The position numbers and the translations under genes were made by a program. The notes under the pieces were generated by a model. That model made no database searches and was not told where the DNA came from. It saw nothing but the letters and a program-made list of their open reading frames with translations. A DNA stretch of 64,000 nucleotides from an uncultured Bacilli bacterium. GTDB lineage: Bacteria > Bacillota_I > Bacilli_A > RF39 > UBA660. This document shows positions 4,812 to 27,720 of this stretch, one piece after another. Position 1 is the stretch's first letter. Every line of letters begins with the position of its first letter. The stretch covers positions 27,025 to 91,024 of the forward strand of contig CAKPDF010000001.1 of the NCBI GenBank assembly GCA_934148535.1. Direction: 5' to 3'.

Positions 4812-6131
4812 TCACCTTTCCTTAGCCGCTTTAAACATTTTCTTCCATATATGACTACCAGAATAATTTAAAATACCTACTTTATATATCTTAAGTCCAT
4901 ACTTCATTAAAATAAATAGTGTTCCTAACATTAAACATATAGATATAATTATGTCTATAATTTCTATATCTCCAAGTATATATAAAGAAGGAGATAACAT
5001 AGTACCTATAAAAGGAACATAGGATAATACTCTAATAAAGATACTACCATTAAACATAGAGGCCATTATAGATAAATAATAACCTGCTAAACTAGTTAAA
5101 ACTATAGGAGTTTGTACCTGCTGATAATCTTCCATACTAGTAGTCATTGAAGCACATATAGCAGATAATAAAGAATATCCTATAAAAGATAAGATAATTA
5201 ATATTAAACTAAGTATTAAAACTAAAATTATATTTCTATTTAAAGTTATATTTTTAATACTATCCATAACATCTATACCACTACTACCTAATATAGAATT
5301 AAAGTCAAAACTTCCACATATATTAAATCTAATATATACACCTATTAATATGTATGCTAACAATAATATACCTTGTAATAATACAAATATATTACCTGAT
5401 AATAACTTAGAAATAAAATGAGTTTTAGGAGAAACATTAGAAATAATAATTTCCATACCTTTAGTAGATTTTTCTTCATTTATTTCTGCTCCTATCATTT
5501 GAATTAAAAACATAGTAAGCATAAATACAGGAAGTATTACTATAGGAAATACTACTCCCATAAATATTTCATTATCATTTTTACTATTTTTGTTTAATAT
5601 TTCTCTTTCAATACTAATACTTTTATTTATATTCATCATAGTATTTGTATCAATACCATTTACAAGTAATGCTTTTTCTTTTTTTATATTATCAAGGCAA
5701 TTAGTAATACTCTGATACGTTATAGTATCTATCTTATCATTACTAACTATTTTTGCATTCATATAATTATAATCATCTTTATTAACTACTACTAAAATAC
5801 TATTATTATCATCACTTTTCTTTACTTTAGATACAAACTTATCATAGGATTCTATAGTATCTATATTCATGTTTAGTGACAATAAATTAGAATATTCATT
5901 CATACTATTTTCAAATTCATCTAATATATCATAATTAGTATTATCAACTACATATATAATAGTCTCTTTACTAAAATCACCTCCAAAAAATTTAATGACG
6001 CTATCAATATTTAAAAGACCTATAATCAATATAGCAAATATAATGTTAGCAACTAAAAACCATTTGGATTTAATCTTTTTATTTAAACTAACCTTTGTTA
6101 AATATTTTAGTTTTTTATTCATATTTTTCAC
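4812..6131 (-). CDS. ABC-2 type transporter permease
   Basis: Polytopic membrane protein that overlaps the upstream ABC ATPase gene. This is the typical NatB-like layout. Confidence 0.6.
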   Translation of the reverse strand: MKNMNKKLKYLTKVSLNKKIKSKWFLVANIIFAILIIGLLNIDSVIKFFGGDFSKETIIYVVDNTNYDILDEFENSMNEYSNLLSLNMNIDTIESYDKFVSKVKKSDDNNSILVVVNKDDYNYMNAKIVSNDKIDTITYQSITNCLDNIKKEKALLVNGIDTNTMMNINKSISIEREILNKNSKNDNEIFMGVVFPIVILPVFMLTMFLIQMIGAEINEEKSTKGMEIIISNVSPKTHFISKLLSGNIFVLLQGILLLAYILIGVYIRFNICGSFDFNSILGSSGIDVMDSIKNITLNRNIILVLILSLILIILSFIGYSLLSAICASMTTSMEDYQQVQTPIVLTSLAGYYLSIMASMFNGSIFIRVLSYVPFIGTMLSPSLYILGDIEIIDIIISICLMLGTLFILMKYGLKIYKVGILNYSGSHIWKKMFKAAKER

Positions 6132-7011
6132 CTACTATGCTTACAAATATTTCATTTAAACTAGCATCTTCTACACTAAATTTATAAATATTAGGAAATT
6201 TACTAATACATTTAAATATTGAAGAAACATAACTATCATCACTAATTTTTATCTCATATTCATCTTTATTTTTAATAACAGAAATAACACCTTTTTGTTT
6301 TAACAATACATCAGGATCTATATCACCACATACTAAAATATTTTTCTTCTTATAATCATTCTTTATATCTTTTAAATATCCTTTAATAACAGTTTTTCCT
6401 TTTACTAAAATAACCAGTTTTTCACAAAAATACTCTACATGATCTAATCTATGTGAAGAAAATATTATACTAGTTCCTTGTTTTTTTAAATTTAGGATAA
6501 TATTTTTAAATAATTCTACATTAATAGGGTCAAGCCCTGAAAATGGTTCATCTAATATTAGTAGTTTAGGCTCATGTATTATAGCGCAGATAAATTGAAT
6601 CTTTTGTTGATTTCCTTTGGATAATTCTTTAATTTTTTTATCTTTAACATCATCCATATGTAACAAACTTAAATATTTATCTAAAGTACTTTCTATTTTA
6701 TCTTCATCCATTCCTTTTAAAACACCATAATATTTTACTTGTTCTAATACAGTCATCTTAGTAAGAAGACTTCTTTCTTCTGTTAGAAAACCAATTTTGT
6801 CAGTAACATCATAATCTATCTTTTTACCATCTAATGTAATAGTACCAGTATAATCATCAATAAGTCCCATAATCATTCTAAACGTAGTTGTTTTTCCAGC
6901 ACCATTAAGGCCTAAAAGACCTAATATTTCTCCAGATTTAACCTCAAAAGAAAGATTGTCAACTGCTAATAAATCACCATAATATTTACTAACATTTACT
7001 ACTTTTAACAA
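6115..7011 (-). CDS. ABC transporter ATP-binding protein
   Basis: Walker A GLNGAGKTTTF and ABC signature LSKGNQQKIQF, followed by LLILDEPFSGLDP. Confidence 0.85.
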   Translation of the reverse strand: MLKVVNVSKYYGDLLAVDNLSFEVKSGEILGLLGLNGAGKTTTFRMIMGLIDDYTGTITLDGKKIDYDVTDKIGFLTEERSLLTKMTVLEQVKYYGVLKGMDEDKIESTLDKYLSLLHMDDVKDKKIKELSKGNQQKIQFICAIIHEPKLLILDEPFSGLDPINVELFKNIILNLKKQGTSIIFSSHRLDHVEYFCEKLVILVKGKTVIKGYLKDIKNDYKKKNILVCGDIDPDVLLKQKGVISVIKNKDEYEIKISDDSYVSSIFKCISKFPNIYKFSVEDASLNEIFVSIVGEKYE

Positions 7012-7228
7012 TTAAACCAACTCCTCTCATAATCATTATATCATCTAATTATAAATAGTCAAAGAATATTTTCTTACTATTTTATTTGAGTATATAATAA
7101 TATTATTATAAATAAAAATATATCCTAATAAAAAAATTACTCATAAATAATTTATGAATAATATAATATAAATTCAACCATTAAATAACTATTAAAATAT
7201 ATTAGTATTTATATTGATGTATTGTATT

Positions 7229-7693
7229 CTAATTAATATAAACTAAAGTATTATTATCATTATCTTTATATACACCTAACATCTCTATAACAATATTCTT
7301 TATCTCATTTTTGTCTTCTAATTTTTCTATTTCTTTATCATATTTTTCTATCTTTTCATTTAACTTATTATCTAAAGAATAATACTCACTAACAATAACT
7401 TCTCCCTCATAAGTACTTTTAATCTTATCTATATTATTTTTATTTTCAGTAATACCAATAATAGCCTTATACAAACCATCATCTTCATAATAAACATAGT
7501 TATTAACACTAGTATTACTAACCATACTATCATAAGTAGAATATGCTCCTGCTTGAATTAAATATATTTTAGTATCATTTAAAGATTTAGATGCACTATC
7601 AACATAAATGCTACATACTAACTTACCACAAATACTTCCACATATAATTGCTAAAAAAATAGGTATAATACCACGTTTGATCTTACTTATCAT
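7229..7693 (-). CDS. membrane-anchored protein with a SPOR-like domain
   Basis: N-terminal TM helix, then IYLIQAGAYSTYDSMVSN...YVYYEDDGLYKAIIGI, which resembles the SPOR repeat consensus (Y.VQ.GAF...G....DG.YRV.VG). Confidence 0.35.
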   Translation of the reverse strand: MISKIKRGIIPIFLAIICGSICGKLVCSIYVDSASKSLNDTKIYLIQAGAYSTYDSMVSNTSVNNYVYYEDDGLYKAIIGITENKNNIDKIKSTYEGEVIVSEYYSLDNKLNEKIEKYDKEIEKLEDKNEIKNIVIEMLGVYKDNDNNTLVYIN

Positions 7694-7745
7694 AATATCA
7701 CCAAACTAATAATATACCTATATAATTAAATAATTTGTCGAATTA

Positions 7746-8846
7746 TTACTTGAATTTATAATAAAATAGTAAATTTGTAGATGGTAATTCATATTTATCA
7801 CTATCTTCATTATTAATATATTTTTTTACATTTTCTTCAGATAATGCATCATTATAAACTAAAACATCCTTAACTGTAATTTTACTAAGACCATTAACAC
7901 TACCATCAGCATCTGGATTACCCCCTACAACTATTGGAGTACTGCTTTTTTTAACTTTACCAGTAAAATCTGCTTCAGCTGAATAATCATTTATATATAA
8001 CTTCATCTTTCCTTTATCATAAACTCCCACTATACTATACCAAGTGTTAGCAGTTACTTTGATTGTAGATTTAGTTTGCTTATATCCACCATCTACGTAT
8101 AATTCGTAAAATATAGTATTATTGGTTGTTTTTACTAGACCGCCACCTGCTGATTCCCAATTTCCAATTATATGTTGTTGCCCATCTGAATTTAAATCAT
8201 TAAATTTAACTTTTATCATAATAGTAATTTTATCATTAAAGTCATAATTATTTAAACCACAATTAACATAAGAATTATTTCCACTAAAAAAGGCCCCATC
8301 AGTATCAGTAGTAACATTATTCTTAAAGCCAATATTCCCTCTTTCTGAATAATCAAATACCATATTATCACTAGTAAATTCTATAGCATAAGGAATAAAT
8401 AGTTTTATACTATAATCTTCATCATTATAAATATTTGTAATTGGAATAACTATAGAAGTATACTTGCTATTAGAAGTAAAGGCCATATCTCCTATTTCTA
8501 AAGTATTACCCATATTTTTTGTATAATTATTATATGTTATATCTTTGGTAGTATTATTTATCGTCAATTTCCTTGTATAGTTTTTTAAATCGTGTTCATC
8601 CCAATAAGTAAAGGTTACTACGTTATTATCTTTTTCTACTTTAGTTAGAGTATAATTATTAATATCTTCCATTATTTTATTTGTTATAATGTTTTTATTA
8701 TTAGTAAATGTTATAGACTTGTAAATATCTTCATCAGTTCTACTAAAAGAAATAGTAAGTCTAACTAAAAAGAATGCAATTCCCATAGCAAGTACTGATG
8801 CAACAATTATCTCTACTATTAAATAACCTTTTCTATTTAATTTCAT
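7746..8846 (-). CDS. prepilin-type N-terminal cleavage/methylation-domain protein (large minor pilin/pseudopilin) with a C-terminal LamG/concanavalin-like domain
   Basis: Start reassigned to the ATG at 8846, which has an AGGTGAT RBS. Leader MKLNRKG, then YLIVEIIVASVLAMGIA (Gly at -1, Glu at +5, hydrophobic helix). The C-terminus shows a LamG-like pattern (..GKVKKSSTPIVVGGNPDADGS..). Confidence 0.5.
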   Translation of the reverse strand: MKLNRKGYLIVEIIVASVLAMGIAFFLVRLTISFSRTDEDIYKSITFTNNKNIITNKIMEDINNYTLTKVEKDNNVVTFTYWDEHDLKNYTRKLTINNTTKDITYNNYTKNMGNTLEIGDMAFTSNSKYTSIVIPITNIYNDEDYSIKLFIPYAIEFTSDNMVFDYSERGNIGFKNNVTTDTDGAFFSGNNSYVNCGLNNYDFNDKITIMIKVKFNDLNSDGQQHIIGNWESAGGGLVKTTNNTIFYELYVDGGYKQTKSTIKVTANTWYSIVGVYDKGKMKLYINDYSAEADFTGKVKKSSTPIVVGGNPDADGSVNGLSKITVKDVLVYNDALSEENVKKYINNEDSDKYELPSTNLLFYYKFK

Positions 8847-18402: not shown

Positions 18403-20049
18403 TTAACTTAGAACAATTCTAAATGTAGTATCTGTCTGAGGGTTACCATCATAGTATGAGGTTTTAAATATATTAGCGTCTTTTTCTGTGTTGGTAGCTC
18501 CTGCTGTTATCCATAATTGTTCTGTAGTTATGTCTGTTATTTCTTCTTGATATTGTATCCATCCTAATTGGTTGGTACTATTAAATACATCATAATATTT
18601 TGAATCTATTTCGTCTAAGAAACTTATATTATTTTTATTTGTTAACATTATTAATTCTTGGGCACCACCTGCCATATCATATACTCCATATATATTTCCT
18701 GTAGTTGATCCTACTATAGTTCTGTCAAATTCATCGGTAGGCAAACCATTTTCATCTAATTTTTGACCAATGTATGAATATTCTCCATAGTCTAAGATTT
18801 TATCTGTGTGTCCCATAGATGATCCGGTGTTATAATATGTACTGTTGTTTGCATAAACTTTTCTACAACCATTTTTAGCACCATTGCATATTCCATAAGT
18901 GCTGTTAGTTAGATATGCTACTGCACTCCATTCTGACATTTTTATAGGATGAGAATCTGTTTTTTCGTCTTGGGTATTTGCTGTGCTTTCAAATATTTTT
19001 GAAGTGTCATATGCAATTTGGGGAGTGATATAAGTTAAAGCGCTGAAATTAGGTAATATTGTTGGATTATCTGTTACTCCTGTTGTTTCAAACTTTCCTA
19101 TCCAAAATCCTGTTAATTCTTTGTCGCCTAATTTGAATGATGGATGTGTATAATAGTCATTGTTGTTGCCATCACATTTTTGATCAGTGCAAACTATTGT
19201 TCCTGTACTTTGAGTTCCTTTTTCGAATACTATATTTATTCCATTTTCTATAGCATTATAACTATAATTATTTTCATCATTTGTCTGATTTATATCCCAT
19301 ACTTGATATTTAAATCTTGGTATCCAAACTAAATATGCTGTTATATCTTCTGAATTGACTATATCTCCGTTTTCTAGTTGTTGATTTTTTTCTAGACTGT
19401 CTTTAGTTACTAGAGCAACATTAGCCCATTTTTTATTTTCATAATTGTACCATTCATAGTTATCGTTTGTGTTTGTTTTATCGGCTTTATGCCAATAGTT
19501 ATCGTTTTCATCAAAATATATTGGTATCATTGTAGATAATAGTTTTGGTACATTGGCACCGCTTGTATCTAGATTTGTGTTTGCTATATTTTTAATATTT
19601 AATGTTTTGGTTATTATTTTTTTGCCTTCTGGTATTATTAGAGCTCCACCATTTATGTATCCGGTTATTACAGATAGGTTTACCGTTATAGTATTATCTG
19701 TATCATTATTTATTATTATTGATACTATTTTATTAGTTTTACCTTCTATTGTATCTTCTGCTTTATTTTGGCTTGTATCAGAGATACCTATATTTAATTC
19801 TGTTTCTGTACTATAAGCAATTGCATAATTTAATGGCTTTTCATATGGATTATTTACATTTATATCTATTGTTTTTGTTTCTTTTGAGGATATTTTTATT
19901 TCTTGTGATTTAGTACTATCTAATATAAAATTGTAGTCTGCTTGATTATCATTGTTGCCATTATCTATTAGAGCAAATGTTGTATATAAACTTGCTACTA
20001 CTACCATTATAATCAATAGCATTAATAGCATTATTCTGTTTTTTTTCAT
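18403..20049 (-). CDS. secreted protein with a SipW-cognate-like signal peptide, a TasA/camelysin-like N-domain and a C-terminal FGE/SUMF1-like domain
   Basis: N-terminus MKKNRIMLLMLLIIMVVVASLYTTFALIDN (compare GGTFAFFSD / GGTWAAFND of SipW substrates). C-terminal motifs GFWIGKFETT, HPIKMSEWSAVAY and GVYDMAGGAQE resemble FGE-sulfatase domain motifs. Several Cys pairs. Confidence 0.5.
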   Translation of the reverse strand: MKKNRIMLLMLLIIMVVVASLYTTFALIDNGNNDNQADYNFILDSTKSQEIKISSKETKTIDINVNNPYEKPLNYAIAYSTETELNIGISDTSQNKAEDTIEGKTNKIVSIIINNDTDNTITVNLSVITGYINGGALIIPEGKKIITKTLNIKNIANTNLDTSGANVPKLLSTMIPIYFDENDNYWHKADKTNTNDNYEWYNYENKKWANVALVTKDSLEKNQQLENGDIVNSEDITAYLVWIPRFKYQVWDINQTNDENNYSYNAIENGINIVFEKGTQSTGTIVCTDQKCDGNNNDYYTHPSFKLGDKELTGFWIGKFETTGVTDNPTILPNFSALTYITPQIAYDTSKIFESTANTQDEKTDSHPIKMSEWSAVAYLTNSTYGICNGAKNGCRKVYANNSTYYNTGSSMGHTDKILDYGEYSYIGQKLDENGLPTDEFDRTIVGSTTGNIYGVYDMAGGAQELIMLTNKNNISFLDEIDSKYYDVFNSTNQLGWIQYQEEITDITTEQLWITAGATNTEKDANIFKTSYYDGNPQTDTTFRIVLS

Positions 20050-20065
20050 GGCTATATCCTCCTTT

Positions 20066-21292
20066 TTATTTTAATATATATGGGGTATCTTGAGTTCCGT
20101 TTCCTTTTATTATATAATTTTCTTCTTTTAATACTATTACTGGTCTTACTTCTAAGTTTGTAGTTGCATCATTATCTATTTTAATACTACCATCTTCTGT
20201 TATTGACATAGTGTATAGATTATTGTTTATATCGTTTAATGTCAATAATAATGTGCCTGGTTTAGTCATCCATGATGTGTTGCAAGTATTTTCTTCTTTA
20301 CAATAAAGTGTGTTTATATAATCTGTAATACTTGGTAATGAGATATTAGTTTCGAAAGTATTTGTAATAGTTATTTGTGATTCTTTGAAATTTTCTTTAT
20401 TTTCTATAGATGTTGTTTCATTATTTACTGTTTGCATATCTAATAGTGATATTGTTTCTTTTGTTAATCCTGTATTAGTGAAATTACATTCTTTTTCAAG
20501 ATTATCTTGATAGCAAGTTCCTTTTGCACTTTTATAATATAATTCATTTAATAAATTGTTTATTTTAGAGTTTTGATAATACTTTAGATTATTATCATAT
20601 TGGTAATTACCTATACTGTTTTCTTTAATTAATTTTAACTTATTGTTATATACTCCTATTATTTGCCACATTTCTTGGTTTATTATTATATGATTATTTG
20701 GATTTGCTCCGTAGTATAATAAGTTTTTATTTTTATCATAGTATAATTCAGTGCTATCTTCTGTATATAGATTAGTAATAAACTCTGCTGCAGTTTGATT
20801 TCTTATGTCTTTTCTTTCAATTTCTTCTGATACCAATATTCTATTTCCATTGATATTTAGCGATGTATCTTCTGATGTTGCTACTCCTAATTTTATTGTA
20901 GCTTTTTTTTGTGAATTATTTATTATTACTATTGTTATATTTCTTGTTTCATTATTGTTAATTATATCTACAGTTGGATATTTTGAGTCATCTAATTTAT
21001 ATGCATATATATCATTGTTATTTGTATTTATTTTTTCTATCCATACTCCATAATATAGTGATGTATTTTGACTATTTGTTAAATTTATACTTAATATTTT
21101 ATAATTATTTGGTTCTACTGTAGTTATTTGATATTCTTCTATACTAGTATCTACTGAGATAGATGTGTCTATTGATACTATATTGTTTGTATCTATTTCT
21201 GCTTCAAACATTGCATATGTGGAATATATGGCTAGACTGAATAAACTTACTACTATTAATAGCATTAAATAACTTTGTTTAAATTTACTCAT
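20066..21292 (-). CDS. secreted protein, paralogous N-domain to the downstream gene, SipW-cognate-like signal peptide
   Basis: N-terminus MSKFKQSYLMLLIVVSLFSLAIYSTYAMFEAE. Region NITIVIINNSQKKATIKLGVATS is similar to NKIVSIIINNDTDNTITVNLSVITG of the neighbour. RBS AGAGGTGGA. Confidence 0.45.
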   Translation of the reverse strand: MSKFKQSYLMLLIVVSLFSLAIYSTYAMFEAEIDTNNIVSIDTSISVDTSIEEYQITTVEPNNYKILSINLTNSQNTSLYYGVWIEKINTNNNDIYAYKLDDSKYPTVDIINNNETRNITIVIINNSQKKATIKLGVATSEDTSLNINGNRILVSEEIERKDIRNQTAAEFITNLYTEDSTELYYDKNKNLLYYGANPNNHIIINQEMWQIIGVYNNKLKLIKENSIGNYQYDNNLKYYQNSKINNLLNELYYKSAKGTCYQDNLEKECNFTNTGLTKETISLLDMQTVNNETTSIENKENFKESQITITNTFETNISLPSITDYINTLYCKEENTCNTSWMTKPGTLLLTLNDINNNLYTMSITEDGSIKIDNDATTNLEVRPVIVLKEENYIIKGNGTQDTPYILK

Positions 21293-21479: not shown

Positions 21480-21938
21480 CTATAAATTCTCTAATTTACT
21501 TTTAATTATTTTATTAACTTCACCCATGTCGGCTTTACCTTTTAATTTTGGGCTTATTTCTTTCATTATTAATCCCATTTGTTTTTGACTAGTAGGATTA
21601 ATCTTAGAAAATGCTTCTTCAATAATTTCATTTATTTCACTTTCTGATAGTTGTTCTGGCATATATGCATTTAAAACATCTATTTCTTTTTGATTTTGTT
21701 CTGCCAAATCAGTTCTTCCAGCTTTATTAAATTCATTTATTGAATCTTTACGCATTTTTATTTGCTTCGATATAACGTCTACTACTTCTTCATCTGACAA
21801 TTCATGTTTAAGATTTATTTTTGACAATTGGATTGCTCCTTTTACCATTCTAATTACTCCTAATTTAAAATTATCTTTTTCTTTCATAGCGTTCTTTATA
21901 TCTTCATTTATTTTTTCATTTAAATTCATTATAATCAC
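21480..21938 (-). CDS. yqeY: GatB/YqeY domain protein
   Basis: Typical YqeY sequence. It sits downstream of rpsU, as in many Firmicutes. Confidence 0.8.
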   Translation of the reverse strand: MIIMNLNEKINEDIKNAMKEKDNFKLGVIRMVKGAIQLSKINLKHELSDEEVVDVISKQIKMRKDSINEFNKAGRTDLAEQNQKEIDVLNAYMPEQLSESEINEIIEEAFSKINPTSQKQMGLIMKEISPKLKGKADMGEVNKIIKSKLENL

Positions 21939-21948
21939 ACCTTTTCTT

Positions 21949-22140
21949 TTAGGATGCGTATCTTCTATTGTTTTTATGGCAATTTTGAGTATTTTTCTTT
22001 TTTTCTTCTCTTCTCTTAACTCCTGGTTTTTTGTATTCTTGTCTTGCTCTTGCAGCAGTTAGGGTTCCATCTTTTGCAACTTGTGCTTTGAATATTTTTA
22101 ATGCACCATCTAGATTGTTGTTTTTAACTATTACTGACAT
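21949..22140 (-). CDS. rpsU: 30S ribosomal protein S21
   Basis: MSVIVKNNNLDGALKIFKAQVAKDGTLTAARARQEYKKPGVKRREEKKK. Start at the internal Met, with a GAAGGGAGGG RBS. Confidence 0.85.
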   Translation of the reverse strand: MSVIVKNNNLDGALKIFKAQVAKDGTLTAARARQEYKKPGVKRREEKKKNTQNCHKNNRRYAS

Positions 22141-22171
22141 ATTTATCCCTCCCTTCTGCATTTCATATAAG

Positions 22172-22200
22172 ATTATAGCATTATTTTGTTTGGTAATCAA
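22172..22200 (-). promoter_or_regulatory. sigma-A type promoter of rpsU
   Basis: Minus strand: TTGATT, 17 nt, then TGCTATAAT (extended -10), about 30 nt upstream of the rpsU ATG. Confidence 0.6.
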
Positions 22201-22241
22201 GAGTTTTTAGGGAGAATTGTTACTTTTTGATGAAAATAGTA

Positions 22242-22406
22242 TTATATTTTACAGTAAGAGTCAGTTGTTGCTCTTCTTATTACATTACCAAGTGCTTGTC
22301 CTAAAGTAAATAGCGTTGATATTGCTTTAACTATTGCATTTATTGTCGTTGTAGATGAAGCACCTCCTTCTATATTTTTTAATTTTTCTATTGATAGTTC
22401 TTTCAT
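22242..22406 (-). CDS. double-glycine-leader bacteriocin-like prepeptide (54 aa)
   Basis: Not in the ORF track. MKELSIEKLKNIEGG|ASSTTTINAIVKAISTLFTLGQALGNVIRRATTDSYCKI. It has a 15-aa GG leader, a GxxxG motif in the mature part, and an AAAGGAAGAAAAGGT RBS. Confidence 0.6.
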   Translation of the reverse strand: MKELSIEKLKNIEGGASSTTTINAIVKAISTLFTLGQALGNVIRRATTDSYCKI

Positions 22407-22424
22407 ACCTTTTCTTCCTTTCGT

Positions 22425-22565
22425 TTAACTGTTGCATTTTTTGGGGTTCACTAAGCCGTCTACTACTCCTATTAAGAATGAGATAGCTCCTGTTGCAATT
22501 GTTACTACTAACCAATTTACTCCTCCTTCTATTTTTTTCATTTCTTTTTTATTTAATTTTTTCAT
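22425..22565 (-). CDS. double-glycine-leader bacteriocin-like prepeptide (46 aa)
   Basis: Not in the ORF track. MKKLNKKEMKKIEGG|VNWLVVTIATGAISFLIGVVDGLVNPKKCNS. It has a GG leader, a GxxxG motif (GVVDG), and a GAAGGGGAG RBS. An alternative in-frame start gives a 7-aa leader MKKIEGG. Confidence 0.55.
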   Translation of the reverse strand: MKKLNKKEMKKIEGGVNWLVVTIATGAISFLIGVVDGLVNPKKCNS

Positions 22566-22630
22566 ATCTCCCCTTCTTTCAGACATTATCTTAATAATAT
22601 TTACATTTTGCTTAGAAATATCTATATTAA

Positions 22631-24709
22631 TTAATAATAATTTTTCTTTTTTAGATTTTCTATTATTCTTCCATCTTCAATTTTAATAACTTGATTATAT
22701 AAATCCATATTTTCTGTTCTATGTGATGTTACTATTATGGTTTTATTAGGATATTTATTAAAAATATTTTTTAATATTCTTCTTTCTAGGTTGATATCCA
22801 TTTCATTTAATCCTTCATCTATGATCAAAATATTTGATGGTTTTAGCAATGATCTTGCTAAAATTATTTTTTGTTTTTGTCCTCCTGAAATGTTTGCTCC
22901 ATTTTCTTCAATAAGCGTATCATATCCTAAGTATAATTCAGATACAATATCATTTACGTAAGTTAATTTGCAAATTTCATTAAAATCTTTACTGTTAATA
23001 TTTCTATTTAGTATTATGTTGTTTTTTATTGTATCTGTATATATAATTTCATTTTGAGAAATATATGTTATTTCTTTTCTAATATTACTAATTGGAATTT
23101 TATTTAAGTCATGATTCCCATATGTAATACAATTGTCTTTTATTTTATAATATTTACATAATATTTTTAATAATGTACTTTTACCAGAGCCAGTTGAACC
23201 TAAAACAAGTACTTTGGAATTATTTGTAATAGTTAAGTTTAAGTTGTTTAATACTTTTTTATTGGGATAGTTAAAAGATAAATTTTTTATTACTATATTT
23301 CCATTAATACTAATTTTATCTTCTTTTGTTAAATTTTCTGTTTCTACTTCAAATATGTTATTGGCTCTTTTTAGAGCATTTATTGCATAGTAATAATTTT
23401 TATTCAGATCAATTATATTTTTTATAGGATTTATAAAATATACCAAAAGTGCATTAAATGTTATTATCTTTTCTAGTTTTATTTGATTGTTTTGTAACAT
23501 TAGAAAGCCAATATAATTAATTATTATTATTCCTAATGCTGTTATAAATTCTTTTAAAAATAATTCAATATTATTCAAGTTTTCCGTTTCTGTGACAATT
23601 TTTGTTAATTTATTATATTTTTTTTGAAATATTTTATATCTATTACTTTCCAAATTTAATCCTTTAATTGTTTCAAATCCTGAAATTGATTCTACTAAGT
23701 AAGAGTTAACTTTAGAATTTTGTTCTTGAACTAGATTTATTCTTTTCTTTGCTAGTGGTTTAAATATATTGAAAATTACAATGTAGTTCAAAATAATTAT
23801 TATTAAAATTATAAACATTTTGGAACTAGTATTATATAATATTATTCCAGATGATATAGAAATAATTGCATCTAATAGTACAGTGAGTATTATTTGATTT
23901 AACATTATTTTTATATATGTTAAATCATTAATTCTTGATAAAATATCACCAGTTGTTTTATTTTTATAATAATTATAAGGAAGTAAAAGTGTTTTTTGGA
24001 AAGCTTTTGTTATTAGAGAGCAATCTATTTTTTGATCTAATTTTATTACTAATCTATTTCTTATGTAATTTGATAAGCATTTTATTGTAATTATTATTGT
24101 AAATATTAAGGTTATGACTTTTAAATTTTTGGCATTTATTCCATATTTTATTAAAATTTCTAAATAATAAGCATATATACAAGAAACAGCAGTAAATATT
24201 ATTGAAAATATTATGATATTTATAACAAAGATTTTATTTGATTTTATTATTTTCAATATTACTTGATTCAAGTAATTTGGTACTTTTATATTTGGTAATT
24301 TTCGATATGGACTAAATTCCATTATATTTCCAGTCCAAATTTTTATGAAATCTTTTATACTTAGATTTAATCTGCCTATAGATGGGTCCATTATTTCTAC
24401 TTTTTTATTTGATATTCTGTATATTACTACAAAATGCAATAAGCCATCATTATCTGTCTGACATAATAATGGAGGACTTAGATTATTTATGTCTTCTATT
24501 TTTGATAGATAATATGCTTTTGTAGATAACCCTATTCTATTTGCTGCTACACTAATATTATAAAAATTAGTACCATTAATAGTTGTAGATGTCATTTTTT
24601 CTAATTCATTTAATGGATAATTTCCTTTATGGTATTTTATTATTGATAATAAGCATGCAGCTCCGCAGCTTTTATTATTTGTTTGCAATACAATTAAATT
24701 TTTTTTCAT
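22631..24709 (-). CDS. bacteriocin/peptide ABC exporter with an N-terminal C39 peptidase domain (LagD/ComA/SunT family)
   Basis: C39 motifs QTNNKSCGAACLLSII and LLHFVVIY, a six-TM ABC exporter domain, Walker A GSTGSGKST, and signature LSGGQKQKIILARSL. RBS GAGGAGG. Confidence 0.9.
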   Translation of the reverse strand: MKKNLIVLQTNNKSCGAACLLSIIKYHKGNYPLNELEKMTSTTINGTNFYNISVAANRIGLSTKAYYLSKIEDINNLSPPLLCQTDNDGLLHFVVIYRISNKKVEIMDPSIGRLNLSIKDFIKIWTGNIMEFSPYRKLPNIKVPNYLNQVILKIIKSNKIFVINIIIFSIIFTAVSCIYAYYLEILIKYGINAKNLKVITLIFTIIITIKCLSNYIRNRLVIKLDQKIDCSLITKAFQKTLLLPYNYYKNKTTGDILSRINDLTYIKIMLNQIILTVLLDAIISISSGIILYNTSSKMFIILIIIILNYIVIFNIFKPLAKKRINLVQEQNSKVNSYLVESISGFETIKGLNLESNRYKIFQKKYNKLTKIVTETENLNNIELFLKEFITALGIIIINYIGFLMLQNNQIKLEKIITFNALLVYFINPIKNIIDLNKNYYYAINALKRANNIFEVETENLTKEDKISINGNIVIKNLSFNYPNKKVLNNLNLTITNNSKVLVLGSTGSGKSTLLKILCKYYKIKDNCITYGNHDLNKIPISNIRKEITYISQNEIIYTDTIKNNIILNRNINSKDFNEICKLTYVNDIVSELYLGYDTLIEENGANISGGQKQKIILARSLLKPSNILIIDEGLNEMDINLERRILKNIFNKYPNKTIIVTSHRTENMDLYNQVIKIEDGRIIENLKKKNYY

Positions 24710-24850: not shown

Positions 24851-24926
24851 TGGTGCCGAAAGCAGGATTTGAACCCGCGACCTACGCGTTACGAGTGCGT
24901 TGCTCTACCAACTAAGCTATTTCGGC
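24851..24926 (-). tRNA. tRNA-Thr (anticodon CGT)
   Basis: Cloverleaf GCCGAAA...CTCGTAA (anticodon loop)...GGTTCAAATCC...TTTCGGCACCA, with encoded CCA. Confidence 0.85.
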
Positions 24927-25810: not shown

Positions 25811-26590
25811 TTATAAACTTTTCTTATAATCATCTATTAATTCATATGCTTTTTTATAATTTATGGAATTATATTTTTGTGTCTTTTTTAGAGGACCAAT
25901 TAACCCTGGAAAGCTGTATTTCATATACTTATTGTGAAACTCTTTTTCCATTATCTTTTCCAGATTGAAGAAAAATTCTGAAGCATCAGGTGATACTGCA
26001 TCTAATATTTCTTCTATTTCACGATGACTTTTTGAGAATGCTATTTTATTCATAACATTTTCTCCAAATATTTTTTCTAATTCATATGCTATTTTTGTTT
26101 CTTTTGGGTAACCACATGAGGAAGTTAATAAATTATATTTTTTTGCTAACTGTCTTGTTTTTAATTCGTTTATTCCTTCCCTAATTGCAGTAGCTCCTCC
26201 GCTTCCGCAAAAATGCATAGTTTCATGAAGTAAAATTTCTTTATAGTATTCTTCTCCTGTTAAACCTTTTAAGAATACATGTTTTAAATAAGTTATGTAA
26301 GTATTATTGTTTATTATTATATTATCTTTCGTACAAGTTTTATGATTTTTCATTATGCCAAAACCTGGTATTTTTTTTATTTTGTTTAATACGTTGAGTG
26401 CATCTTTAGGAAAATAAAAATTTTTATTACTTACAAATAAGGATATTGTTCCCATTTCTTTTATATGCACTATTTTTTGTAAATCATAGTTTTTGGGAAT
26501 ATCAACAAGATTGGGATATTCTTTTTTGATAATTTTAATTAATTTTTCTATTTCAATAATTAAATTATTTTTTATATTATCTAAGTCCAT
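25811..26590 (-). CDS. hypothetical protein with an HExxH motif
   Basis: LLHETMHFCGSGG suggests a zinc metallopeptidase-like site. No family assigned. Confidence 0.3.
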   Translation of the reverse strand: MDLDNIKNNLIIEIEKLIKIIKKEYPNLVDIPKNYDLQKIVHIKEMGTISLFVSNKNFYFPKDALNVLNKIKKIPGFGIMKNHKTCTKDNIIINNNTYITYLKHVFLKGLTGEEYYKEILLHETMHFCGSGGATAIREGINELKTRQLAKKYNLLTSSCGYPKETKIAYELEKIFGENVMNKIAFSKSHREIEEILDAVSPDASEFFFNLEKIMEKEFHNKYMKYSFPGLIGPLKKTQKYNSINYKKAYELIDDYKKSL

Positions 26591-26943: not shown

Positions 26944-27720
26944 TTAATTTTTAGCAAAATTATTATCTAAATTATAAGTTATAATTTCTTTAAATAGTTC
27001 ATTAATATTTTCTTTAGAAATTTTAAATATTAATCCTTTATTCCTTTGTCTTCCTTTTTCACTACCACTTCTTGAAACTCTACCTACTAATGAAATATCA
27101 ATAATATTTTTTTCTATTAACTCTATAAACTTTTCTGCAGAAATCAATTCATATATTGAAATTTTATAATATCTAAAGTAATCTTTTTTATCAATTATTT
27201 TTTTGCTGGCATAAACAATTGCTAGGCTAGAAAGTTTTGTTTGTAAATGTGTTTTTATGCTATAAAAATCAATATATACACTATTTTCAAGTAAAGTTCC
27301 TGTTATGTCATATATAAACAAAAACATCTTTTCTTGATTATAATCTAATTTTAATTCAAAAAAATATTTGTTATTAACTAATACTTTTTCATTAACTCTC
27401 AAGTTTGCATTTAGTAACTTCTTATCATGATACACTCCATCGTTTTTACCATATTTTTCTAATATTCTATTCATTTCATATAGGAGCGGGCCATCAAAAC
27501 TTTTTGAGAATAAACTTATTGGATATCTGCTATATCTAGTAGTGCATTTTATTTCTGTTCCATAGTAGTCTGGAAAGAACATGCTGTCTGCTTTTTTATC
27601 TAATAATTTTTCAAATGTAAGTCCAACTCCTCCTGTGTCGTTACAGACTGATTCATTCCATCCTTTTTTATTGATGGAAATAAAATTATTTATCAATTTA
27701 TCATATTTTGTATTTTTCAT
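26944..27720 (-). CDS. putative type II restriction endonuclease, MvaI/BcnI-like family
   Basis: N-terminus KGWNESVCNDTGGVGLTFEKLLDKKADSMFFPDYYGTEIKCTTRYSRYPISLFSKSFDGP resembles the BcnI/MvaI N-terminal catalytic region (GGVG..E...PD..G.ELK...R...P.LF). No adjacent methyltransferase. Confidence 0.4.
   Translation of the reverse strand: MKNTKYDKLINNFISINKKGWNESVCNDTGGVGLTFEKLLDKKADSMFFPDYYGTEIKCTTRYSRYPISLFSKSFDGPLLYEMNRILEKYGKNDGVYHDKKLLNANLRVNEKVLVNNKYFFELKLDYNQEKMFLFIYDITGTLLENSVYIDFYSIKTHLQTKLSSLAIVYASKKIIDKKDYFRYYKISIYELISAEKFIELIEKNIIDISLVGRVSRSGSEKGRQRNKGLIFKISKENINELFKEIITYNLDNNFAKN

Follow-up and report, generated by a model that had tools for sequence, protein, structure and literature searches.

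A putative two-peptide bacteriocin cassette beside rpsU in uncultured low-GC gut Bacilli

Introduction

What is encoded by two very small genes that lie between a peptide exporter gene and the rpsU promoter of an uncultured Bacilli bacterium? The genes, termed pepA and pepB here, are found in a 64 kb stretch of contig CAKPDF010000001.1 (hereafter the window), where exporter, pepA and pepB are all read from the minus strand. The three genes appear to constitute a chromosomal class IIb-like two-peptide bacteriocin cassette, in which a PCAT-type transporter would take care of processing and export. Antimicrobial activity is predicted, and the probability of this reading is put at roughly 0.6. An original prediction, made from the DNA letters, had proposed such a locus. 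The six-frame open reading frame (ORF) set of the window has 1406 members; related loci on public contigs are numbered L001-L032, and P0006 denotes one 28-kb ENA contig.

The cassette and its two small genes

The features of the cassette are the following.

24709..22631, minus strand: exporter, 692 amino acids (aa), PCAT/AMS type, from Pfam domains and PCAT1 alignment
22630..22566, minus strand: exporter-pepA spacer, 65 nucleotides (nt), containing the pepA Shine-Dalgarno sequence GAAGGGGAG, from sequence reading
22565..22425, minus strand: pepA, 46 aa, leader MKKLNKKEMKKIEGG, mature part VNWLVVTIATGAISFLIGVVDGLVNPKKCNS, from the ORF and TIGR01847
22406..22242, minus strand: pepB, 54 aa, leader MKELSIEKLKNIEGG, mature part ASSTTTINAIVKAISTLFTLGQALGNVIRRATTDSYCKI, from the ORF and TIGR01847

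The exporter gene is thus followed after 65 nt by pepA and, 18 nt further on, by pepB. A purine-rich Shine-Dalgarno sequence precedes each small gene (GAAGGGGAGAT-ATG for pepA and AAAGGAAGAAAAGGT-ATG for pepB). Both leaders have 15 residues and end in a double glycine (GG), and both pass the TIGR01847 'bacteriocin_sig' model (scores 18.7 and 18.9, cutoff 15.7). Class IIb precursors carry double-glycine leaders of 15-30 residues (PMC2850506); in the present case the GG pair is near-invariant in both peptide families. On all these points, i.e. gene order, strand and gaps, canonical leaders, good ribosome-binding sites and conservation of the GG motif in orthologous loci, the original prediction is borne out.

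Are the two small ORFs real genes? Ratios of nonsynonymous to synonymous substitution (dN/dS, Nei-Gojobori) between the window and three related loci are 0.14-0.36 for pepA and 0.15-0.53 for pepB, from counts that are small and consistent; for the mature parts, compared between the window and L013, they are 0.08 and 0.23. Public gene callers annotate both genes on all related contigs shown, and named relatives are termed 'bacteriocin-like protein' (JGI) or 'class IIb bacteriocin, lactobin A/cerein 7B family' (NCBI). When profiles of the two peptide families were compared with the 1406 ORFs, only pepA and pepB matched (E 1e-24 and 6e-29). Judged by their sequences, pepA and pepB are real genes under purifying selection.

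The mature peptides differ in character. Mature pepA (31 aa, net charge +1) has a grand average of hydropathy of 0.98 and a best 19-residue Kyte-Doolittle mean of 1.97, values of a transmembrane-like helix; it carries an N-terminal VNW, F30-x2-G33-x3-G37, P41 and C44. Mature pepB (39 aa, net charge +3) has a helical hydrophobic moment of 0.56, that of an amphipathic helix, and carries G36-x3-G40, a basic IRR tail and C52. In class IIb bacteriocins a hydrophobic peptide is combined with a cationic amphipathic one, and the two helices pack via GxxxG motifs and span the target membrane (PMC2850506). Two cationic peptides of this length, one hydrophobic and one amphipathic, fit that pattern. A PDB sequence search with both peptide profiles gave leader-level matches only (carnobacteriocin B2 precursor and CtA leader).

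Two peptide families with shared motifs

How far do these peptides extend beyond the window? When a profile built from pepA and close homologues was searched against 1.84 billion cluster representatives (E<=1e-3), a family of 363 clusters at 50% identity emerged. Nearly all members are 43-50 aa long and align end to end. Among 138 representatives, M1, G14, G15, F30, G33, G37, P41 and C44 are near-invariant, and the signature reads leader-GG, hydrophobic helix, F-x-I-G-x-x-D-G-x-x-(N/R)-P-x-K-C-(N/R). At E<=0.01, TIGR03949 is matched by 105 of these representatives (best 7e-9) and NF038034 by 78 (best 5e-9). The window's own pepA scores under both curated cutoffs (17.1 vs 21.5 bits for TIGR03949 and 26.5 vs 37 bits for NF038034). 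On these model scores the pepA family, large and uncharacterised, borders on two models for class IIb bacteriocins. Homology to known bacteriocins, another matter raised by the original prediction, is thus upheld for the leaders (TIGR01847) and for many pepA relatives, but not at curated strength for pepA of the window itself.

pepB matched no named family, and a word-based search returned only relatives of >90% identity. Unrelated 318-aa cytochrome c proteins of Hyphomicrobiaceae share the 90% cluster of pepB, and one of these serves as the cluster representative. This is a clustering artefact, and it is probably the reason why pepB is missing as a representative in the homology search. At each distant pepA locus read, however, a pepB homologue is found directly 3' of pepA. 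In 11 pepB sequences G14, G15, N23, G40, I43 and C52 are invariant and G36 and R45 near-invariant, and the motif is (V/L)-G-(Q/R)-x-(V/L)-G-x-x-I-(R/K)-(R/L)-x6-C. In a separate scan of species-representative genomes with pepA patterns, two distant loci only were detected (48-49% identity). The LVNPKKCN pattern should match the window's species; its absence from the scan points to a representative without the region or to a species outside the collection.

The two families have in common a GxxxG motif in the mature part (G33xxxG37 in pepA and G36xxxG40 in pepB), with glycines that are invariant or nearly so, and a single Cys near the C-terminus, present in >=90% of pepA representatives and 11/11 pepB sequences. 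The spacing from the second GxxxG glycine to the Cys is constant within each family, at 7 residues for pepA (G37-C44) and 12 for pepB (G40-C52). The GxxxG motifs and lone cysteines singled out from the window alone are therefore near-invariant across divergent relatives. The co-conserved Cys at fixed spacing is compatible with an interchain disulfide between pepA and pepB.

Do pepA and pepB act as a pair? They co-occur at 11/11 distinct loci examined, with pepA degraded at one of these (L024). At the ten distinct intact loci they are adjacent, on the same strand, 0-24 nt apart and in fixed order, over a range of mature-peptide identity of 33-95%. The paired arrangement known from class IIb genes (PMC2850506) is accordingly seen in the window, with both genes on one strand and 18 nt between them, and in the order kept at the ten intact loci. 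An alternative is that the peptides are independent one-peptide (class IId-like) bacteriocins, which merely share an exporter and form no complementary pair. Many GG-leader loci do encode several unrelated peptides, and mature pepA and mature pepB are in different families. This alternative is nevertheless improbable, as the fixed order at every intact locus examined persists through deep divergence, both peptides keep GxxxG and one Cys at fixed spacing, and the combination of a hydrophobic with a cationic amphipathic peptide is the class IIb pattern (PMC2850506).

The exporter

What would process and export the two peptides? The exporter has three Pfam domains above cutoff, Peptidase_C39 (6e-31), ABC_membrane (4e-35) and ABC_tran (2e-24), and is built of an N-terminal C39 cysteine peptidase, a six-helix ATP-binding cassette (ABC) transmembrane domain and a nucleotide-binding domain. 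Of the proteins with solved structures, PCAT1 of Clostridium thermocellum is the closest (4RY2; residues 2-685, E 1.9e-112), and the exporter also aligns over its full length with ComA (~1e-87). In the PCAT1 alignment the peptidase motifs Q..CGAACL, HFVVIY and DP, with the catalytic Cys, His and Asp, are in register, and so are the ATPase motifs Walker A GSTGSGKST, signature SGGQ and Walker B ILIIDE. At 395, the score against TIGR01193 does not reach the curated cutoff of 524, so the protein is a divergent member of the PCAT/AMS group. With a C39 peptidase that carries catalytic Cys and His fused to an ABC exporter, the characteristic PCAT/AMS combination, the protein is, by its motifs and alignments, a PCAT-type ABC transporter. 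Gene content and motifs thus indicate a dedicated, presumably leader-cleaving ABC exporter such as class IIb systems possess (PMC2850506). Exporter domains, leaders and paired genes together support the class IIb-like architecture with a LagD/ComA-type exporter that had been proposed.

The exporter itself shows an unusual polymorphism. In the near-identical genome L023 the exporter (5639-7720) has only 53-79% DNA identity to that of the window (22631-24709), and 57% identity as protein, whereas DNA identity is 91-100% for the peptides, rpsU, yqeY and the upstream PNP gene. The L023 allele is equally distant from the L013 allele and from that of the window. This looks like an allelic replacement, or an old polymorphism, confined to the transporter.

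A miniature accessory gene in relatives

Class IIb transporters have an accessory protein encoded with them (PMC2850506), and none is encoded with the exporter of the window. In L009/L010, L013, L020, L021, L025, L026, L029 and L032, a four-gene unit is present instead: exporter, an accessory of 124-155 aa, pepA and pepB. G+C content at these loci is 22-29%, and the exporters share 36-60% identity with that of the window. The accessory gene lies between exporter and pepA, in the place taken by the 65-nt spacer in the window, and in L013, L020/L021, L026 and L032 it starts 8 nt before the exporter stop codon, so that the two genes overlap. The product has a single N-terminal transmembrane (TM) helix and no Pfam match. 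Its predicted fold resembles best the beta-barrel domains of membrane-fusion proteins of the HlyD/MexA/MacA type; the matches are BesA (7.9), a Bacteroides efflux adaptor (7.8), MacA (7.1), MexA (7.0), ZneB (6.7), EmrA (6.6) and Spr0693 (6.5). With moderate confidence, and on the basis of the predicted fold, the accessory is taken to be a miniature HlyD/LcnD-type export accessory. It was also considered as a possible missing immunity protein, and was rejected as such given the overlap with the exporter stop, the one N-terminal TM helix and the membrane-fusion-like barrel.

The window's lineage (window, L001-L008, L016-L019, L022 and L023) is without the accessory gene, and a search of the 1406 ORFs found no homologue anywhere in the window. 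The original prediction was right that no HlyD-like gene is present; what comparison adds is that, by sequence, the absence is a secondary loss, since relatives carry the gene. PCAT1 likewise has no accessory partner. PCAT1-type exporters function in Gram-positive membranes without one, and export is therefore still expected in the window's lineage. ComA/LcnD-type systems differ in having an accessory of ~450 aa (LcnD/ComB-type), whereas cassette relatives have the mini membrane-fusion-like protein.

Proposed mechanism

How might the cassette work? By homology, the 15-residue GG leaders of both precursors would be recognised by the C39 domain and removed by cleavage behind G15, with the ABC core exporting the mature peptides. 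Mature pepA and pepB might then pair through their GxxxG faces to form one membrane-inserting helix-helix unit. This unit would make the membranes of competitors leaky, probably via a membrane-protein receptor as in lactococcin G. More speculatively, the conserved C-terminal Cys of each chain may join pepA and pepB by a disulfide.

Linkage to rpsU

The features that flank the cassette are as follows.

24926..24851, minus strand: tRNA-Thr (anticodon CGU), from ARAGORN and Rfam tRNA (69.9 bits); upstream boundary of the locus in this strain
22200..22172, minus strand: sigma-70-like rpsU-yqeY promoter TTGATT-N17-TGcTATAAT, from a consensus scan; ~41 nt past the pepB stop
22140..21949, minus strand: rpsU (ribosomal protein S21), from Pfam Ribosomal_S21 (5e-15) and TIGR00030; downstream neighbour, outside the cassette
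21938..21480, minus strand: yqeY, downstream of rpsU

Did the cassette arrive by insertion between tRNA-Thr and rpsU? Both flanks are as given in the original prediction, which also raised the idea of an insertion. rpsU lies directly 3' of pepB in the window, L009, L013, L016, L025 and L026, with one gene between in L029. The linkage is seen where exporters are only 36-40% identical to the window's, and the S21 proteins of the distant rpsU-linked loci are 41-53% identical to the window S21. Of the contigs read that have the window's exact S21, 23/23 carry an intact exporter together with the 46-aa and 54-aa genes, in eight distinct upstream contexts shown. What varies is the stretch from tRNA-Thr to the exporter, which holds an acetyltransferase gene, a 234-aa gene or wholly different upstream DNA. 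Because the rpsU linkage is old and all 23 identical-S21 contigs carry the cassette, insertion between tRNA-Thr and rpsU is ruled out. A recent insertion at tRNA-Thr was rejected on the same grounds, since the cassette-rpsU junction persists through deep divergence and variation is confined to the flank 5' of the exporter.

The linkage is not universal, and the cassette is apart from rpsU in L020/L021, L024 and L032. As a side observation, tRNA-Thr(CGU), upstream of the exporter in the window (24851-24926), is found directly 3' of pepB in L020 (10411-10486), where the cassette is not at rpsU. The proximity in both could be a coincidence or an old rearranged neighbourhood.

Does co-transcription with rpsU account for the synteny? 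Every locus has its own rpsU promoter, and the promoter site of the window is conserved in L016, L023 and L013. Intrinsic terminators are found between pepB and rpsU in L013 (6836-7000), L026 (7306-7388) and L025 (1601-1913). Co-transcription as the cause of synteny was rejected on the strength of these terminators and the separate promoters. In the pepB-rpsU interval of the window (22141-22241), no terminator is seen between pepB and the rpsU promoter (spacer fold z = 0.18), and with the terminator lost, read-through from the cassette into rpsU is possible in the window's lineage. On such transcripts, the stretch UUCUCCCU 5' of the rpsU promoter could base-pair with the Shine-Dalgarno sequence of rpsU; an anti-Shine-Dalgarno hairpin 5' of rpsU was rejected, as shuffled sequences fold equally well (z = 0.18). 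A fusion was also observed in P0006 (~22278..21949 of the window), where a predicted protein of 93 aa joins pepB residues 1-43 in frame to S21 from ~residue 15. It represents either a natural deletion or an assembly artefact.

Immunity, regulation and alternative roles

Several observations weigh against a bacteriocin. The foremost is the immunity gene, which in class IIb systems is always within the peptide operon (PMC2850506), but which is not recognisable in or beside the cassette, either in the window, as had been predicted, or in ~ten divergent relatives. pepB is followed by the rpsU promoter with no further cassette ORF; an immunity gene elsewhere in the genome is possible. In the relatives, the genes next to the cassette include none of a multi-TM or immunity-like kind. 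In addition, the window peptides score below the curated cutoffs of all mature-peptide family models, and a good part of their weak family similarity falls in the leader. Bacteriocin loci are usually strain-variable, whereas this cassette is on 23/23 identical-S21 contigs and holds its rpsU position across deep divergence. A measured antimicrobial activity was not found in the literature searched for any family member. Lastly, the host is a gut anaerobe, in which extracellular disulfide formation is not assured.

Could the peptides instead serve their producer, e.g. as membrane-inserted subunits or as envelope or sporulation factors, and thus fulfil a conserved core function of a low-GC, spore-forming Bacilli clade? 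The cassette is found on 23/23 contigs read for the species, the rpsU-yqeY adjacency is kept at 36-40% exporter identity, an immunity gene is seen at no sampled locus, and purifying selection is strong (dN/dS of 0.08 for mature pepA). No natural function is known for the PCAT1 substrate, which also counts towards such a role. The absence of an immunity gene, the presence on every contig and the deep vertical inheritance keep a self-directed role in consideration. There is, however, evidence of a different kind. The L024 copy (5500-8200) is in decay, with a frameshift that splits the exporter into two ORFs, a truncated accessory and an in-frame TAG in pepA, while pepB is intact; the remnant adjoins a transposase-like gene and rpsB-tsf, not rpsU. 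The cassette is accordingly dispensable in at least one lineage, as expected of a competition locus. It has moved off rpsU in L020, L021, L024 and L032, and terminators in relatives separate it from rpsU, so that a functional operon link is lacking. An exchange of the exporter for an allele of 57% identity, as seen in a near-identical genome, is what competition loci typically show, and all sequence similarity points to bacteriocin families. On balance a role in the producer itself is considered unlikely.

A bolder variant of the two-peptide bacteriocin carries about the same low expectation and is put forward tentatively. Here pepA and pepB would form a disulfide-linked heterodimer, a new two-peptide sub-type. 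The family, large and vertically inherited in uncultured low-GC gut Bacilli, would occur in all genomes sampled and lack an immunity gene. Producers might be intrinsically insensitive (e.g. by having no receptor), or the peptides might have a self-directed role tied to the rpsU neighbourhood. In the literature searched, neither a disulfide-linked two-peptide bacteriocin nor a GG-peptide locus at rpsU was found.

Might one or both peptides be quorum-sensing pheromones of the ComC/BlpC type, processed by a ComA-like exporter? The original prediction had kept this alternative in view. A GG leader with a C39 ABC exporter is common to ComC/ComAB and BlpC/BlpAB, and pepB weakly matches the EntF induction-factor model, in the leader only (20 bits vs a cutoff of 35). 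A pheromone circuit would be expected to have its cognate kinase and regulator nearby, but no histidine kinase or response regulator (HATPase, Response_reg) is present among the ORFs of the 64-kb window or in the flanks of relatives. Nor does mature pepA, a transmembrane-like helix of 31 aa, resemble soluble pheromones. Pheromones typically diversify into pherotypes, whereas the mature sequences here are strongly conserved. A pheromone is thus a very remote prospect, and the two-peptide bacteriocin remains the preferred interpretation.

Genomic surroundings

The window has a G+C content of ~25% and matches contigs of human gut metagenomes (Hadza and other cohorts). The genes around the cassette are those of ordinary chromosomal DNA, namely enolase, UppS, RNase J, L21-L27, S2-Tsf, PriA and mur genes. 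Sporulation genes are found as well: the window's species has CotJB/CotJC, and relatives have YabP, YqfD and a SpoIVB-like protein. A scan of the window with Rfam gave no match inside the cassette locus. Elsewhere, the ribosomal protein L21 leader RF00559 (29092-29162, minus strand), 5' of L21-Prp-L27, scores barely above the gathering threshold. An MvaI/BcnI-family restriction endonuclease, with no methyltransferase gene visible alongside, and its neighbour, a 259-aa protein with an HETMH motif and no Pfam match, are located at 26944-27720 / 25811-26590 (minus strand). Two adjacent minus-strand proteins of 408 aa (20066-21292) and 548 aa (18403-20049) have similar N-terminal signal anchors and no Pfam match; L013 and L016 keep the pair 3' of yqeY, whereas more distant loci do not.

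Comparison with known systems

If active, the peptides would be the first characterised members of a two-peptide bacteriocin family of several hundred clusters, from uncultured, very AT-rich gut Bacilli of humans and animals, organisms with essentially no experimental biology. At 31 and 39 aa and apparently unmodified, they are directly testable by chemical synthesis. Which known systems do they resemble?

The lactococcin G/lactococcin Q/enterocin 1071 group (NF038034 for beta, NF038035 for alpha) likewise combines, in one locus, a C39 ABC exporter with a pair of neighbouring GG-leader genes. NF038034 (lactococcin G-beta/enterocin 1071B) is the best NCBIfam match of pepA, with 26.5 bits, under the cutoff of 37. 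pepA is like lactococcin G-beta in its N-terminal Trp region and F-x2-G-x3-G, and pepB is like lactococcin G-alpha in G-x3-G and a cationic C-terminal tail. In hhalign comparisons of the family profiles with the mature lactococcin G peptides, FLIGVVDG of pepA falls on G18xxxG22 of beta and LGQALG of pepB on G7xxxG11 of alpha. These alignments are not significant (probability 0.5-2%, beta 0.5%), and mature-peptide homology to lactococcin G was rejected on this test. The two motifs are those proposed to pair in lactococcin G (PMC2850506). Differences are also evident. The lactococcin G order is alpha, beta, immunity, exporter, accessory, whereas the family cassette has exporter, accessory, beta-like, alpha-like; lactococcin G has an immunity gene and the cassette does not; and the lactococcin G group is plasmid-borne or strain-variable, whereas the cassette is chromosomal, on every contig read and at rpsU. 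The lactococcin G peptides presumably contain no Cys, unlike pepA and pepB with their C-terminal Cys.

A second likeness is to lactobin A/cerein 7B (TIGR03949), the model matched by 105 of 138 pepA representatives and the name that NCBI gives to MDD4035894.1 from a Bacilli metagenome-assembled genome. For the window pepA (17.1 against 21.5), the matched residues 2-31 are largely leader. Lactobin A and cerein 7B, which we take to be glycine-rich, do not appear to have the pepA signature F..IG..DG..NP.KCN.

The locus therefore differs from known class IIb systems in having no immunity gene, a paired conserved Cys, a mini accessory (lost here) and a presence on every contig read. Should activity be found, knowledge of class IIb would be extended to a system with one Cys per chain, no immunity gene, a mini accessory lost in the window's lineage and an allele swap of the exporter only.

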